A stretch of DNA of 24,900 bases from a virus (lineage: Duplodnaviria > Heunggongvirae > Uroviricota > Caudoviricetes): positions 1 to 24,900 of the IMG/VR virus record IMGVR_UViG_2713896899_000006, one strand, 5' to 3'. The notes below the pieces were generated by a model. The model was given only the letters and a program-made list of their open reading frames with translations, had not been told where the DNA came from and ran no database searches. Each line of letters opens with the position of its first letter. The stretch's first letter is position 1. Both the position numbers and the translations under genes were made by a program. Below are positions 7,327 through 12,624 of this stretch, in pieces.

Positions 7327-8106
7327 ATGAGCGAGAAATTGAAGATCGTCTATCGCCCGTTACAAGAACTGTCTCCGTATGCACACAATGCTAGGACACA
7401 CAGCCCTGAGCAGGTAACGCAACTGGTAGAAAGCATTAAGCAATTTGGCTGGACTAATCCGGTGCTGATTGATGAAAAGGGCGAAGTTATTGCGGGCCAC
7501 GGTCGCGTTATGGCGGCTGAAGTGCTCAAAATGGATTTCGTTCCGGTCATCGTTCTGTCTGGTCTGACGGATGATCAGAAAAAGGCGTACCGTCTGGCAG
7601 ATAATCGCCTGCCGATGAATGCTGGCTGGGATGAAGATCTGTTACGGATGGAGCTGTCGGACCTAATTAATGCTGATTTTGATGTCTCCCTGACAGGCTT
7701 CAGCCCGATAGAAATTGATGAACTGTTGACGGATATTTTGCCTGGTACAGGAAATGAGGAGGAGCCGTATACGACGAAAATTGATACGCCTGTTTATGAG
7801 CCGTCAGGCGATAAACCGGATATCTGTGAACTGTACGACGATACGAAAACTCAGGAGCTGATCAGCCGGATACGTTCGGCGTCCCTTAATCCTGATATTG
7901 AGAAATTCCTCCTGTGCGCGGCAGAACGTCACACGGTGTTTAATTTCAGCAGAATCGCGGACTATTACGCTCACGCCCCCGCTGAAATTCAGAGCCTTTT
8001 TGAGGAATCGGCTCTGGTGATCATTGATTATCAGCAGGCAATTGAAAATGGGTTTGTCAGGATGACGCAGCGCATGGTGGAGATCATGCATGGCGAGGAG
8101 GAGTAA
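7327..8106 (+). CDS. ParB-like nuclease (ParB N-terminal/Srx-like) domain protein, 259 aa
   Basis: N-terminal region (YRPLQELSPYAHNARTH...IAGHGR...YRLADN) resembles the ParB N-terminal nuclease-like domain common in phage genomes; no methyltransferase motifs seen; GAGG RBS. Confidence 0.6.
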   Translation: MSEKLKIVYRPLQELSPYAHNARTHSPEQVTQLVESIKQFGWTNPVLIDEKGEVIAGHGRVMAAEVLKMDFVPVIVLSGLTDDQKKAYRLADNRLPMNAGWDEDLLRMELSDLINADFDVSLTGFSPIEIDELLTDILPGTGNEEEPYTTKIDTPVYEPSGDKPDICELYDDTKTQELISRIRSASLNPDIEKFLLCAAERHTVFNFSRIADYYAHAPAEIQSLFEESALVIIDYQQAIENGFVRMTQRMVEIMHGEEE

Positions 8107-8107
8107 T

Positions 8108-9040
8108 ATGCGTGATGATTTTTGCGCCTTTATTCTGACTCACGGGCGACCGGACAAAGTTCTGACTTACCGGACGTTGCGTCGTGCTGGCTATACCGGG
8201 AAAATTTTTATCGTTGTTGATGATGAAGATAAAACCCGGCATCAGTACGTAGCAGAATTTGGTGAACAGGTGCTGGTGTTTTCCAAAGCCGATATCGCCA
8301 GTCGTTTTGACGAAGCCGACAACTTTGGCGATCGACGTTCAATCTTTTATGCCAGGAATGCCTGTTTGGGCCTGGCAAAAAAGGTTGGGTGTAAATACTA
8401 CATCCAGCTTGATGACGACTATCACGAGTTTCAGTTTCGGGTAGATCGCAACTATGACCAGGCTTATTTTCCGATAAGGAAACTGGACTCGATCCTTTCT
8501 GAAATGCTGGCGTATTACGAATCAATTCCTGCGCTTTCCATCGCTATGGCGCAGGGGGGGGATTTTCTTGGTGATAATGGTGGTCATGCTGCATGGGTGA
8601 AACGCAAAGCAATGAACAGCTTTATTTGTTCTGTTGACCGACCATTCTCATTTATGGGGCGTATTAACGAGGATGTGAATACATACACGAATCTCGGTCG
8701 TCGTGGTGAATTGTTTTTGACGATTGGCGCTGTCCAGTTAGGGCAGAAGCAAACGCAGAAAAACAGCGGCGGAATGACCGAACTGTATCTGGATTCCGGC
8801 ACCTACGTTAAAAGTTTTTACTCCGTCATGTATGCGCCGTCGTGCGTAAAAATCTCACTGATGGGCGCCAGCCATAAACGCATTCACCATCAGGTCACCT
8901 GGAACAACGCTGCAGTAAAAATCCTTCACGAAAAATACAGGAAGAAGACACCCTGCATATCAATGGGGGTGATAAATGATTCCGTATTCGAAAGTCGAGT
9001 CTCTGGCAGCGTGCCGGATGACTGCACAACAAATCGCTGA
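8108..9040 (+). CDS. hypothetical protein with GT-A glycosyltransferase-like signatures, 310 aa
   Basis: ATG at 8108 directly after GAGGAGGAG; N-terminus FILTHGRPDKVL resembles the start of GT2 enzymes (IPTYNRPELL pattern); acidic IVVDDED and a DDD (DxD-like) motif in YIQLDDDY. Fold assignment is inference only. Confidence 0.45.
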   Translation: MRDDFCAFILTHGRPDKVLTYRTLRRAGYTGKIFIVVDDEDKTRHQYVAEFGEQVLVFSKADIASRFDEADNFGDRRSIFYARNACLGLAKKVGCKYYIQLDDDYHEFQFRVDRNYDQAYFPIRKLDSILSEMLAYYESIPALSIAMAQGGDFLGDNGGHAAWVKRKAMNSFICSVDRPFSFMGRINEDVNTYTNLGRRGELFLTIGAVQLGQKQTQKNSGGMTELYLDSGTYVKSFYSVMYAPSCVKISLMGASHKRIHHQVTWNNAAVKILHEKYRKKTPCISMGVINDSVFESRVSGSVPDDCTTNR

Positions 9041-9227
9041 CGTTCTGGATGTTGATCTGAACAGACTGAAAGAAAATCGGGAAGCAATGACAAATTTTTA
9101 TGCGTCCATCCGTAAGGGCAGAGCGAAAGGTGAAGCCGAGCTACGGGCGGCATTGTTTAAGCTTGCCAGAAAAGGGGATGCCTTTGCTCTGCGTGCATTA
9201 CTCAGGGTGGATAAAAATCAGGACTAA
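8976..9227 (+). CDS. small helix-turn-helix protein, 83 aa (possible packaging accessory/DNA-binding protein)
   Basis: ATG at 8976 with GGGGGTGA upstream; overlaps the 3' end of the preceding gene by 65 nt; HTH-like segment MTAQQIADVLDVDLNRL; ends 4 nt before the small terminase. Confidence 0.4.
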   Translation: MIPYSKVESLAACRMTAQQIADVLDVDLNRLKENREAMTNFYASIRKGRAKGEAELRAALFKLARKGDAFALRALLRVDKNQD

Positions 9228-9230
9228 CTG

Positions 9231-10334
9231 ATGAGAAGACCGGACTGGGGGGCGTTGCAGCAGGAATATATTGCTGAATACACCCGCTCCGGTGTATCTC
9301 CGGTGGCGTGGTGTGAAGCAAAGGGACTGAATTACGCAACAGCCCGTCGTTACATCAAGAAACCTCCGAAAAATGCGCAGACAGAAGTGCGCAAAACTGC
9401 GCAAAAAAGTGCGCGAAAAAAAACTGCGCAGACTGCGCAGACTGCGCAAAAGCAAAACGGAAAATCTCAGAAAAAAAAGCCTGTATCCGATGCACTCCTG
9501 ATTGAGGGGGACACGGAAGAAATTTCGTTCTGCCCCGATGAATTCGGTATTTCTGACCAGCAGGCAAAATTCGCCATGTTGGTTGCTCAGGGGAAAAAGC
9601 CGACAGAGGCATACCGCCTGGCTGGTTACGAGGGGCAAGGTGCGACAGCAAACAGCAATGCCAGTCGTATGCTTAGAAATGCCAGGGTTTTTCGTGCCAT
9701 CAGCTACTTTCGCAATCATTACCAGAAACGCTATACCGCAGACCTGGATTTACTGGTGAGTCAGTTGATGGCCATCGTGCAGGCTGATCCCAATCAGCTT
9801 GCGCAATTTCGCCGTGTTAACTGTCGCTATTGCTGGGGGGAGAATCACCTCTATCAGTGGCGCGATATAGCAGAATTTGACAGGGCTGCCGCGCAGGCAT
9901 CCAAAGATGGTAAACCAGAACCTGAATATGGTGGCCTCGGTTTCGTTGATAGCGCCATACCAAATCCAGACTGTCCGAAATGCGGTGGAGAAGGTACAGG
10001 TCAGCTTTATATGGCTGATACCACTTTGCTTGATGGAAATGCGCGGCAATTGTATGCAGGAGCAAAGCTCGGAAAATTCGGCGTTGAGATCCTGCTGGAG
10101 AATAAAGCTGCCGCCCGGCGTGAATTATTGCGTTTGCTTTCCGCTGGCGGGGCATTATGTGCAGATAAGCGACTACAGGAACTGGAAATTGAACGGCGCA
10201 GAATGGAAAACCAGAAACTGCGCAAAGAGATCGAAACGGTGGAGGGTAATGAACATCCCCAGCCTGTGGCGATCAATATTAATGTAGTTGATGCCAGAGT
10301 GAGGAGTGATGAAGATGATCTCTCCGACGCTTAA
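9231..10334 (+). CDS. terminase small subunit (Terminase_2-like core) with N-terminal HTH, low-complexity K/Q/T/A linker and C-terminal CxxC...CxxC region, 367 aa
   Basis: Segment QQAKFAMLVAQGKKPTEAYRLAGYEGQGATANSNASRMLRNARVFRAI matches the Terminase_2 small-subunit pattern from memory; directly upstream of and overlapping the large terminase. Confidence 0.7.
   Translation: MRRPDWGALQQEYIAEYTRSGVSPVAWCEAKGLNYATARRYIKKPPKNAQTEVRKTAQKSARKKTAQTAQTAQKQNGKSQKKKPVSDALLIEGDTEEISFCPDEFGISDQQAKFAMLVAQGKKPTEAYRLAGYEGQGATANSNASRMLRNARVFRAISYFRNHYQKRYTADLDLLVSQLMAIVQADPNQLAQFRRVNCRYCWGENHLYQWRDIAEFDRAAAQASKDGKPEPEYGGLGFVDSAIPNPDCPKCGGEGTGQLYMADTTLLDGNARQLYAGAKLGKFGVEILLENKAAARRELLRLLSAGGALCADKRLQELEIERRRMENQKLRKEIETVEGNEHPQPVAININVVDARVRSDEDDLSDA
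9374..9448. repeat. cluster of six exact TGCGCA palindromic hexamers plus one TGCGCG variant within 75 bp, inside the terS coding sequence
   Basis: TGCGCA at 9374, 9388, 9398, 9425, 9434, 9443 and TGCGCG at 9410, spaced 9-15 bp; encodes the TAQTAQTAQ low-complexity linker. Confidence 0.8.
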
Positions 10335-12624
10335 TGTGCCTCAGGCGCGATTTCTTTCTATGCCTCATAAATTTAAAGCCTATGTTGCTGGTTTTGGTTG
10401 CCTGAGGGGAAGTACGCCTGTGGTTACAGAGAATGGGATTCTACCCATTCAGGAAATAACTCGACCAATGCGCGTTTTATCTTGGTCGGATGAGAATAAT
10501 CGATTTGAGCTTTCGCTAAGTGGTGGTGCGTACCCAAAAGGTGTGGCGAATCTATACCGAGTAGTGACGCAGCGAGGAGAATTTGTAGCAAGCGGACATC
10601 ACCGCGTTTTTTGCGCTGACGGTAGCTATCGATCTGTGGATAGTCTGGACGAATCGGTGAAGGTATTTGCATCTTCGCAAAACCTTCTTCTGACCAGTTT
10701 GGCCGCCGTCCCGAAATCGTTGCACGCAGGTGATCCACGTTTGAATCAAAAACTCGCAGATTACTTGGGTTGTTATGCAGATGAAGCCCGTCGATATGGT
10801 CAACAACTTCTGATGGCAGCAGATAACGCCCCAGCTTCTTTTCAGCGATCAAACGATGTTCAAACATCATGCCTGTTCTGCGCATATATGGATGGTCAGC
10901 AGGCGCTGGAGCAACGGCATATCCATCCAGATCAACAATTCGACCACCACGAAAGCTGGGGTTCAACTCACCCTTTCTGGCGCCACGGGAGAGCCGGTTG
11001 GTGTTGTGAATTCGGAGAATATTTTGAACGTGCTTTTCTGTGCAACCAACTTCCGCCGCGATCTCTGCCGACGTACGGTGACCATCAGCAAGAGCGAGGA
11101 TTCTGTCCTTCGCACTTTCTCGAGGGGCAGGCTTCTGGCGTTGTTTCAGCGTTAACCCATAACGAGATATGCAACGATAAACATGACTACGGTCACAACC
11201 TGCCAGAGAAGCAACTTCTGAAACGGTACGTTCTGGATGTGCTAAATCACAAATTAAATGGTCAAGAGGCGTCAAAACCAAACGCCTTAATCGAAACCTG
11301 CAACATATTGAGTGTAACACTGTTGCAGGAGGCCGAGCCATATTATGACCTCCAGGTATTGGATAATAACTGCTACGTAACTGCTGATGGGACGATTCAT
11401 CACAATAGCGGTAAAACATGGGTTGGGTGTGGTGGCATATGTAAGGGGATTTGGGAGCATCCGGGTATCAATCAGGGATATTTTGCGCCTACATATCCAC
11501 AAATTCGCGATATTTTTTATCCTACAGTTGAAGAAGTTGCTGCCGACTGGGGGCTAAATGTAAAAATTAACGAGGGAAATAAAGAAGTTCATTTTTATTA
11601 CGGACGTCAGTATCGGGGAACCACTATCTGCAGATCGATGGAGAAGCCACAAACGATCGTCGGTTTCAAAATTGGTAATGCGCTGGTGGATGAACTGGAC
11701 ATTTTGCCGAAGGAAAAAGCCAGAACAGCGTGGCGCAAGATAATTGCGCGTATGCGTTATAAGGTTGATGGACTTCGTAACGGTATTGACGTTACAACCA
11801 CGCCGGAAGGATTCAAATTTGTCTACGAACAGTTTGTTAAAGCCGTACGTGAAAAAACAGAGCTGGCCTCACTGTATGGCCTGGTACAGGCATCTACTTT
11901 CGATAATGAAAAGAATTTGCCAGCAGATTACATTCCCTCGCTCCTTGAGTCATATCCTCCAGAGCTGATTAAAGCCTATCTTCGGGGACAGTTTACTAAC
12001 CTGACAAGTGGTACTGTTTACCATCAGTTTGACCGAAAACTGAATAATTGCGAAGAAGAGGAACAGCCAGGTGAGCCGATATATATCGGGATGGATTTTA
12101 ACGTCGGAAAAATGGCTGGAGTCGTTCATGTGTTACGTTTTGGGCTTCCATGCGCAGTAACTGAAATCATTAACGCTTACGATACACCAGATATGATCCG
12201 TATTATTAAAGAGCGCTTCTGGTTATATGACGGGAATGATTATCGGAAAGTAAGGGAAATTTATATTTATCCTGATGCATCCGGGGATTCCAGAAAATCA
12301 AATAACGCAAGTGCGACGGATATTGCTCAGCTTAAACAGGCTGGTTTTAACGTTGTTGTAAACAGTTCGAACCCGCCAGTAAAAGATCGCGTTAACTCAA
12401 TGAATGCAATGTTCTGCAATGCCAATGGTGAGCGTCGCTATAAAGTTAATGTGAAGCGTTGTCCGGTATATGCCGAATCTCTGGAGCAACAGGTCTGGGA
12501 TGATAAGGGTGAGCCTGATAAAAAATCTGGTAACGATCACCCGAATGATGCCGGAGGTTATTTTATTGTTAAGCAATTCCCTATTGTCAAACCGACCGGA
12601 AGAGTTACATCACTTCGGATTTAA
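10306..12624 (+). CDS. terminase large subunit precursor (772 aa) containing a 336-aa intein inserted in the Walker A P-loop
   Basis: Exteins join as ...AYVAGFG|SGKTWVGCGG... (Walker A GFGSGKT) with Walker B-like ALVDELD downstream; the rest of the protein has the layout expected of a terminase ATPase/nuclease. Confidence 0.85.
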   Translation: MMKMISPTLNVPQARFLSMPHKFKAYVAGFGCLRGSTPVVTENGILPIQEITRPMRVLSWSDENNRFELSLSGGAYPKGVANLYRVVTQRGEFVASGHHRVFCADGSYRSVDSLDESVKVFASSQNLLLTSLAAVPKSLHAGDPRLNQKLADYLGCYADEARRYGQQLLMAADNAPASFQRSNDVQTSCLFCAYMDGQQALEQRHIHPDQQFDHHESWGSTHPFWRHGRAGWCCEFGEYFERAFLCNQLPPRSLPTYGDHQQERGFCPSHFLEGQASGVVSALTHNEICNDKHDYGHNLPEKQLLKRYVLDVLNHKLNGQEASKPNALIETCNILSVTLLQEAEPYYDLQVLDNNCYVTADGTIHHNSGKTWVGCGGICKGIWEHPGINQGYFAPTYPQIRDIFYPTVEEVAADWGLNVKINEGNKEVHFYYGRQYRGTTICRSMEKPQTIVGFKIGNALVDELDILPKEKARTAWRKIIARMRYKVDGLRNGIDVTTTPEGFKFVYEQFVKAVREKTELASLYGLVQASTFDNEKNLPADYIPSLLESYPPELIKAYLRGQFTNLTSGTVYHQFDRKLNNCEEEEQPGEPIYIGMDFNVGKMAGVVHVLRFGLPCAVTEIINAYDTPDMIRIIKERFWLYDGNDYRKVREIYIYPDASGDSRKSNNASATDIAQLKQAGFNVVVNSSNPPVKDRVNSMNAMFCNANGERRYKVNVKRCPVYAESLEQQVWDDKGEPDKKSGNDHPNDAGGYFIVKQFPIVKPTGRVTSLRI
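10399..11406 (+). other. intein (protein-splicing element) within terL, 336 aa
   Basis: Starts with Cys in block-A-like CLRGSTPVVTENG; block-B-like TxxH (ASGHHRVF) about 65 residues in; ends with block F/G-like YYDLQVLDNNCYVTADGTIHHN followed by +1 Ser; insertion exactly splits the P-loop. Confidence 0.8.
10424..11341 (-). CDS. HNH (HNH_3-like) homing endonuclease with two HTH-like motifs, 305 aa, encoded antisense within the terL intein
   Basis: Minus-strand ORF (track 10424..11419) with HRLIAEKKLGRYLLPSEVVDHIDGLHLHNNPSNLRVFDSNVDHL, a strong match to the HNH_3 signature; I verified the reverse-complement translation of 10730-10810 by hand. GGAGG lies 7 nt upstream of the ATG at 11341 on the minus strand. 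Confidence 0.7.
   Translation of the reverse strand: MARPPATVLHSICCRFRLRRLVLTPLDHLICDLAHPERTVSEVASLAGCDRSHVYRCISRYGLTLKQRQKPAPRESAKDRILALADGHRTSAEIAAEVGCTEKHVQNILRIHNTNRLSRGARKGELNPSFRGGRIVDLDGYAVAPAPADHPYMRRTGMMFEHRLIAEKKLGRYLLPSEVVDHIDGLHLHNNPSNLRVFDSNVDHLRATISGRRPNWSEEGFAKMQIPSPIRPDYPQIDSYRQRKKRGDVRLLQILLAASLLGIDSPHLLGTHHHLAKAQIDYSHPTKIKRALVELFPEWVESHSL

Follow-up and report, generated by a model that had tools for sequence, protein, structure and literature searches.

The small terminase subunit (TerS) of phage SPP1 makes multiple contacts with repeated short boxes. The SPP1 packaging site pac (pacL-pacC-pacR) overlaps the start of terS (PMC9611059). In headful lambdoid phages of the P22/Sf6 type, the packaging signal is located within terS, and specificity and site are co-inherited (PMC9611059; PMC11260489). 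Phage P1 has a pac site of 161 bp within pacA, with seven TGATCA/G hexamers in two groups (HEX4 and HEX3) around an IHF site and the cuts (PMC10028697; PMC11260489). PacA and PacB were proposed to bind the hexamers and Dam methylation was proposed to control cleavage; synonymous recoding of the hexamers lowered the phage yield about 9-fold (PMC10028697). For most pac phages, the site is unknown, as for ES18, or the specific binding of TerS to pac is not reproducible in vitro (PMC9611059; PMC11260489). Here, an array of seven palindromic TGCGCA/G boxes inside the terS gene of a Caudoviricetes virus is compared with these systems. The DNA analysed, called the window below, comprises positions 1 to 24,900 of the IMG/VR virus record IMGVR_UViG_2713896899_000006. 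From sequence comparison and by analogy, the array is probably the TerS-recognition part of a prophage pac site of the P1-like kind, bound by a PacA-like helix-turn-helix (HTH) domain.

The exact TGCGCA boxes start at 9374, 9388, 9398, 9425, 9434 and 9443, and a single TGCGCG variant starts at 9410. The start-to-start distances are 14, 10, 12, 15, 9 and 9 bp. This confirmed the original prediction, which had described six TGCGCA and one TGCGCG within 75 bp of a small-terminase gene (9374-9448) with a spacing of 9-15 bp. The prediction had also called the clustering far from chance, and the statistics agree. A Poisson estimate expects 0.031 TGCGCA per 75 bp and gives a P of about 1e-12 for at least six copies, or about 2e-6 after correction for all 75-bp intervals and all hexamers. 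The top cluster of any hexamer in 75 bp had three to five copies in 300 shuffles that preserved the dinucleotides, and six were never reached. Besides the terS array, the real window has no other cluster with at least four copies of a hexamer. A count of TGCGCA elsewhere in the genome had been proposed in the prediction as a check; the rest of the window has 11 copies, all single and scattered.

The array DNA corresponds to TerS codons 48-73 with the peptide NAQTEVRKTAQKSARKKTAQTAQTAQ. Six boxes read xxT-GCG-CAx, and the box at 9388 lies in another frame (gTG-CGC-Aaa, coding for VRK). The family consensus of the box is AA(C/G)TGCGCA(A/G)AA, with A-runs between the boxes. Tandem Repeats Finder limited the strict tandem repeat to 9423-9448; the other four boxes are spaced irregularly. 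The seventh box appears to be a recent product of slippage or unequal exchange, because close relatives have one 9-bp unit fewer.

Several features are shared with P1. Both loci have seven palindromic hexamers of the TGNNCA/G type (TGATCA/G in P1, TGCGCA/G here) with an irregular spacing of 7-15 bp. In both, the hexamers are in the 5' third of the small-subunit gene, use more than one reading frame and lie just 3' of the codons of a homologous N-terminal HTH (...LN-x-x-TARRY...). The N-terminus of the window TerS (...GLNYATARRYIKK) resembles that of P1 PacA (...NLNPNTARRYLRA). Alignment of an 8-member profile with P1 PacA by hhalign gave a probability of 89% and an E of 2e-6, with residues 5-44 collinear on residues 2-41. 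TerS residues 6-82 match PHROG 1711, the PacA family (E 6e-5), and the N-termini of the window TerS and P1 PacA both match PHROG 370. In the P1 record, the annotated cleavage sites are surrounded by the hexamers, which are found at PacA amino acids (aa) 65-77 and 108-118 and use two reading frames. Cronobacter phage JK004 has kept both TGATCA groups with changed encoded peptides, and phage D6 has GATC-containing boxes placed further downstream. Preservation of the boxes as DNA seems to hold likewise for the P1-type hexamers. The remainder of TerS is unlike P1, with a Terminase_2 body and a zinc ribbon instead of the PacA body. By analogy, the array likely works in the manner of the P1 hexamer domain, from which it differs as a separate variant with a TerS of the Terminase_2 type.

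The TerS body and G1P of SPP1/SF6 are grouped in one Pfam family. Unlike SPP1, the PacA-like N-terminal domain is an addition here, and the SPP1 boxes have another sequence and lie on both sides of the cut. In P22, pac consists of one asymmetric sequence of 22 bp instead of an array of short palindromes, and gp3 falls into another TerS family. Stx2a-converting (933W-like) phages and Escherichia phage PhiR12_3 share the N-terminal domain family, and in their terS genes an array follows the domain directly. PhiR12_3 terS has 5 + 2 TGCGCA boxes. The Stx2a phages differ: their helix A-R-T-R-I-K is paired with four GATC boxes (YGATCATRA), a motif closer to that of P1. By analogy with P1 pac, these boxes could be Dam-sensitive. 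In the Stx2a-converting phage Stx2_356 (locus L201, 1640-1685 and 1730-1775), the four GATC-containing boxes CGATCATGA / TGATCATAA follow the homologous HTH. This locus also has two TGCGCA boxes about 50 bp further downstream, common to the PhiR12_3-type body. A literature search found no experimental characterisation of the terS arrays of Stx2a phages or PhiR12_3. It also found no description of TGCGCA arrays, of PacA-like N-domains in lambdoid TerS or of pac sites in Rac-like and Stx phages; subscription journals were poorly covered and an earlier description is possible.

The window TerS scores 31.4 bits against Terminase_2 (PF03592, aa 125-324; cut-off 26.1), and the TerS of the relative L198 scores 101.8 bits. 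The N-terminus was modelled with AlphaFold2 from a 53-sequence alignment. The model has helices at residues 6-20, 24-31 and 35-41, with a predicted local distance difference test (pLDDT) score of 77-88 for residues 1-43. The predicted recognition helix is Y35-A-T-A-R39-R-Y41. The array appears to be coded in a disordered basic linker between the HTH and the Terminase_2 body, because residues 45-95 are unstructured in the model, with a pLDDT of about 50. A Foldseek search with the N-domain model gave nothing significant (E >= 0.85); the top-ranked entries were nearly all HTH DNA-binding domains, with the IS21 transposase IstA first. TerS and P1 PacA both give weak matches to transposase-type HTHs. 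Sequence searches of solved structures gave no match for TerS and TerL, and the best solved TerS reached only an E of 0.23. A search of 1.84 billion representative proteins placed the HTH domain family in 377 clusters at 50% identity. The domain starts at residue 1 essentially always and occurs essentially only on terminase small subunits. A profile search of a 5.8-billion-protein collection with the N-terminus yielded only fragments of 44-84 aa, which were used as the alignment for structure prediction.

The box sequence follows the recognition helix. The comparison covered 76 diverse loci (numbered L) in Enterobacterales, Vibrio and Aeromonas, about 70 species in all, together with related phage records; the search pattern was derived from a 4-sequence alignment. 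TGCGCA accompanies the helix A-R-R-[YH] at 57 of 62 loci. The five exceptions comprise four copies that are truncated, decayed to pseudogenes or devoid of an array (L232, L255, L258, L264), and one of the Stx2a type. The helix A-K-R-[YH] is accompanied by TGCGAA/TTCGCA at 12 of 12 loci, mostly within the 12-mer palindrome TGCGAATTCGCA. Cross cases between R-type and K-type helices and boxes are absent, and three more phages obey the rule. Two loci have a body as in the window TerS, other N-terminal domains and other repeats at the position of the array. L144 (helix A-K-N-H-I-T, type C) carries AAAAATCGCGAA three times, with TCGCGA boxes in the same place of terS. L004 (a different HTH, type B) has two copies of GTTTCCAC and then an inverted GTGGAAA(C), so that the two orientations code for different peptides. 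These rare types are represented by one or two sequences each: one IMG/VR locus for type C, and three loci for type B, two of them with unrelated HTH proteins.

Helix and boxes change together on related TerS bodies. The K-type L244 and the R-type L248 have bodies with 90% identity, the bodies of L284 and L223 are 79% identical, and L200 (TGCGCA) and L201 (GATC boxes) fall in one body cluster. HTH and array are thus transferred together onto shared TerS bodies. The split between R and K helices may represent one evolutionary event.

An unbiased scan of IMG/VR used three closely spaced TGCGCA on a viral contig as its criterion. It yielded 108 new loci, and the HTH was located directly upstream in 66 of them (hmmsearch E <= 1e-22). 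Two further loci are terS genes: L356, truncated at the edge of its locus, and L291, with an HTH of another class. All other loci have either a strictly tandem coding repeat in an unrelated gene or, in a few cases, an intergenic array.

The original prediction had left open whether the DNA repeat or a low-complexity coding repeat made by slippage is the feature under selection. Frame and codon statistics were obtained for 65 distinct intact arrays of the diverse set. Their 275 TGCGCA boxes are distributed over the three frames as 206, 54 and 15, and 57 of the 65 arrays use at least two frames. Alanine in the A-Q dipeptides of the linker is coded by GCG in 200 of 225 cases (89%, versus a background of 27%). 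T is the last base of the codon before A-Q 208 times out of 225 (92% versus 24%), although this codon specifies at least 11 different residues. The first box begins a median of 8 nucleotides past the codons of the recognition helix, and the modal copy number is five. In type-A genes, synonymous diversity is lowest at 9363-9410 (0.01-0.017), where non-synonymous diversity is 0.05-0.09. The array windows have about 31 times the TGCGCA density of the flanks. At least four copies of one hexamer were found in 71 of 77 array windows, and at least five copies in 59 of 77 compared to 5 of 964 controls. The selected feature is the DNA motif and not the peptide, because three reading frames are used and synonymous sites are fixed in a way that keeps the hexamer. 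The suggestion of a selected DNA repeat was thus borne out, and slippage would account for the seventh copy only.

Non-randomness of the boxes, constraint at the DNA level, covariation of box and HTH, co-transfer and the homology to PacA were observed. The covariation and the PacA homology support the predicted candidate pac or TerS-recognition array. From these data, we infer that the HTH binds the boxes and that this binding starts packaging. Several HTH domains of an oligomeric TerS, attached by flexible basic linkers, would occupy the close boxes on concatemeric DNA. The bound TerS would recruit the large subunit TerL for a first cut, which may be located near the array. As in P1, headful packaging would then probably have the same direction as the transcription of terS, with terL and the head genes ahead. 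A disordered linker tolerates almost any sequence, so its DNA would be free to carry the signal. In the mosaic recombination typical of lambdoid phages, HTH and own site would be inherited as one recombination-proof module. On balance, it seems rather plausible that P1 pac is one Dam-gated member of a widespread portable cassette, in which a PacA-like HTH and its own boxes, placed in the DNA of the disordered linker, are shuffled as a unit among TerS bodies of Enterobacterales, Vibrio and Aeromonas phages with a readable recognition code. According to the sequence pairs, R39 may specify TGCGCA and K39 may specify TGCGAA/TTCGCA; other helices may specify GATC-containing or TCGCGA boxes.

A number of observations weigh against a P1-like pac site. 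The homology to PacA spans about 40 residues, with a pairwise BLASTP E of 0.006, and the comparison of the relatives' TerL with P1 PacB was not significant (BLASTP E 0.8), although both are members of the broad PHROG 2. Unlike P1, the boxes are without GATC, which leaves no Dam gating of cleavage. They form one contiguous 75-bp cluster with no second cluster in the window, whereas HEX4 and HEX3 of P1 are about 90 bp apart. The IHF consensus WATCAANNNNTTR was searched near terS without a match. The entire 5' module, beyond the array, has a low synonymous diversity among close relatives, which could indicate a young, recently spread module. Single boxes are dispensable, and the copy number varies from 3 to 8 across the relatives. 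In the allele seen most often, two slots are degenerate: TGTGCA and TGCACA, the latter through a synonymous change. L291, from a GC-rich phage, has a TGCGCA array at 2121-2200 in terS; the array follows an unrelated HTH, just upstream of a large-terminase-like open reading frame (ORF). Intergenic TGCGCA arrays are also present on unrelated viral contigs. The relation of motif and HTH therefore appears strong but not exclusive: the code is not one-to-one, because L291 and the intergenic arrays have TGCGCA without this HTH. Outside the HTH family, arrays of 5-7 copies were seen at L291 2121-2200, L364 1892-1960, L389 9752-9815, L376 1571-1620 and L313 10434-10540.

The variation in copy number was followed in an alignment of 83 close TerS relatives over the array. 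They have 4-6 exact boxes in six homologous slots, and the window has the extra 9-bp unit. The linker accepts in-frame indels of 9, 12 and 27 bp (L007, L008, L070). The array copy number seems to drift by slippage or unequal exchange, with some boxes being non-essential, because the extra unit, in-frame deletions and degenerate slots occur in close relatives. Comparison of the copy number among relatives was a further check named in the prediction; the six slots are conserved, and in some alleles two of them have degenerated.

The boxes might be bound by the TerS HTH for regulation, e.g., TerS may repress or pause its own late operon at the level of transcription or translation. DNA constraint and covariation with the HTH show the behaviour of a binding site, which is not the same as packaging. 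The sites lie within the gene of the regulator itself, and the dispensability of single copies would suit a regulatory site. This role is considered unlikely, since P1 PacA with its hexamers, the one homologue characterised so far, represents a packaging site and the HTH is essentially confined to residue 1 of terminase small subunits. A sigma-70-like promoter was sought near the array and none was found. The boxes could also be the target of another factor: a host protein, the ParB-like or the 83-aa TerS-like protein coded upstream, or a GCGC restriction-modification or base-modification enzyme. TGCGCA is a palindrome of the sort recognised by restriction-modification enzymes, and genes for a ParB_N protein and a TET-associated glycosyltransferase (TAGT) are located just upstream of terS. 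The clusters in L291 and in intergenic regions occur without this HTH. Yet the box sequence switches with the HTH on TerS bodies that are 79-90% identical, and no methyltransferase was found among the scanned ORFs of the window. Another binding factor is quite improbable, because the HTH is the only constant neighbour of the arrays. The ParB/TAGT pair and the 83-aa ORF were ruled out as partners of the array; they are missing from the array-bearing L198, L199 and L144.

A function as RNA or on the antisense strand is even less probable. The palindromic boxes would form a row of hairpins, and a minus-strand hairpin followed by a T-run resembles intrinsic terminators. The predicted fold of 9355-9465 has -35.9 kcal/mol (z = -4.2), which was matched by none of 200 shuffles. 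Three terminator-like sites on the minus strand lie in the array, and the scanned 1-kb region has five compared to 1.2 expected. However, a repeated palindrome folds strongly by default, and the A-runs are lysine codons. Arrays of the TGCGAA and GTTTCCAC types are without a hairpin plus T-run, an Rfam search gave no family match, and the covariation with a protein helix would be left unexplained. The least probable origin is a mere slippage-made coding repeat, a TAQ/SAQ linker of low complexity without a role at the DNA level. The final three units are a perfect 9-bp tandem, the array in the window exceeds those of its relatives by one unit, in-frame copy-number variants are known, and genuine TGCGCA tandem coding repeats exist in unrelated viral genes (L297, L308, L365). 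Slippage does not account for the irregular spacing of four of the seven boxes, for a hexamer kept in three frames with different peptides or for the fixed third positions (89% GCG, 92% T-ending). TGCGAA and GTTTCCAC arrays in both orientations are inexplicable as a peptide repeat. The slippage proposed in the original prediction holds for the extra 9-bp unit, the seventh copy, and fails for the rest of the array. A TerS-recognition site for packaging is the preferred reading of the array.

The gene context agrees with a headful phage. Upstream of terS are the genes for antiterminator Q, holin and lysis. A T4-type TerL (Terminase_6N 1e-30, Terminase_6C 5e-10), a portal protein (DUF4055, PHROG 145) and a Mu-F-like head protein (Phage_Mu_F) follow downstream, a combination that appears compatible with headful packaging and differs from a lambda-type cos terminase. 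The TerL of PhiR12_3 was annotated by its depositors as 'T4-like headful'. Close relatives are found beside trkG in Rac-like lambdoid prophages and in induced phages. The terS type was found in 895 of 5,426 complete E. coli genomes with 80-95% identity. The features are listed in Table 1.

Table 1. Positions of the box array and of the terminase genes and domains in the window.
Feature	Position	Strand	Basis or description
TGCGCA/G box array	9374..9448	.	Seven palindromic boxes inside terS
Perfect 9-bp tandem, unit ACTGCGCAG x 2.9	9423..9448	+	Tandem Repeats Finder
terS, small terminase subunit, 367 aa	9231..10334	+	Pfam Terminase_2 aa 125-324; PHROG 51 E 6e-73
PacA-like N-terminal HTH domain (predicted), aa 1-44	9231..9362	+	AlphaFold2; hhalign with P1 PacA; PHROG 1711
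Basic linker DNA, aa 45-95, holds the array	9363..9515	+	AlphaFold2
Terminase_2 body of TerS with CxxC...CxxC zinc-ribbon insertion	9603..10202	+	Pfam; sequence read
terL, large terminase, Terminase_6N/6C, T4-like type	10306..12624	+	Pfam

The TerS body has a zinc-ribbon-like insertion, CxxC...(44 aa)...CxxC, with the cysteines C198, C201, C248 and C251 (codons at 9822, 9831, 9972 and 9981). It is foreign to canonical Terminase_2 small terminases and common to most body types in the family. A second patch of low synonymous diversity, 9699-9735 (RNQYQKRYTADLDLLV), lies about 250 bp 3' of the array, with values of 0.03-0.07 versus 0.1-0.3 around it in 64 type-A terS genes. The patch could be another DNA-level constraint, e.g., a cut region, or a recombination artefact.

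A deletion-fusion allele O::terS is present in Escherichia phage Rac-SA53 (L003, 2912-3100), L156 and L169. The N-terminal HTH is gone, and the array has decayed to two exact TGCGCA together with TTCGCA, TGCGCT and TGCCCA. The decay is consistent with a constraint that is lost once the reader domain is gone. Runs of A5-A8 lie among the boxes, at 9363-9480 in the window and in the relatives L071, L221, L237, L263 and L265. Many database proteins with the TerS N-terminus (P0001-P0120) are truncations of 44-84 aa in which the array DNA is read in a shifted frame (...NLRRKKCALRKK...). The frequent frameshifts at A-runs represent prophage decay, sequencing error or possibly slippage.

An ORF of 83 aa (8976-9227) precedes terS. 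It matches positions 145-215 of 319 of the small-terminase family PHROG 309 (E 8e-22), is conserved in Rac-like relatives and has no counterpart in other phages with an array. The ORF may be what is left of a terS gene, or it may code for a second small protein of packaging. Further upstream, the ParB_N-domain protein (7327..8106) has an N-terminus like that of ParB-methyltransferase fusions, without the methylase domain. The TAGT gene (PF20691, 8090..9040) matches PHROG 842, 'beta-glucosyl-HMC-alpha-glucosyltransferase'. Together, the two genes suggest a DNA base hypermodification; a TET or C5-methyltransferase was not found among the scanned ORFs of the window.

The terL gene contains an in-frame insertion of 336 aa (10399-11406) in the Walker A motif (AGFG/CLRGS...TIHHN/SGKTW, with slashes at the junctions) with intein-like blocks. 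Nearly the whole insertion is covered by an antisense ORF of 331 aa (10424..11419, minus strand) with strong matches to an HTH and an HNH endonuclease (PHROG 10730, E 6e-49). With both strands open over about 1 kb, the sequence suggests a mini-intein with an antisense-encoded homing endonuclease. Of the 5,426 complete E. coli genomes, only one has the insertion; the RefSeq annotation of this near-identical locus gives an HNH gene plus a pseudogene of terL. A paper has described 'hidden' HNH genes that use another frame on the same strand (PMC11855218). A literature search found no case of an antisense HNH gene in an intein.

How TerS chooses viral DNA is an old problem. From comparative genomics, a candidate site is available here together with its likely reader and natural variants of specificity. 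In one natural variant, the change of a single helix residue is matched by the change of a single base, a pair that is directly testable. Known pac sites for this E. coli terS type and for the Stx2a modules would improve the prediction of lateral and generalised transduction of adjacent chromosomal genes. By chance, host DNA should seldom contain a seven-box site. Compact packaging signals for the design of phagemids or transducing particles would follow. If the portable cassette of HTH and array is true, TerS-DNA recognition becomes directly testable, and pac specificity would be predictable from sequence and reprogrammable by a swap of about 250 bp.

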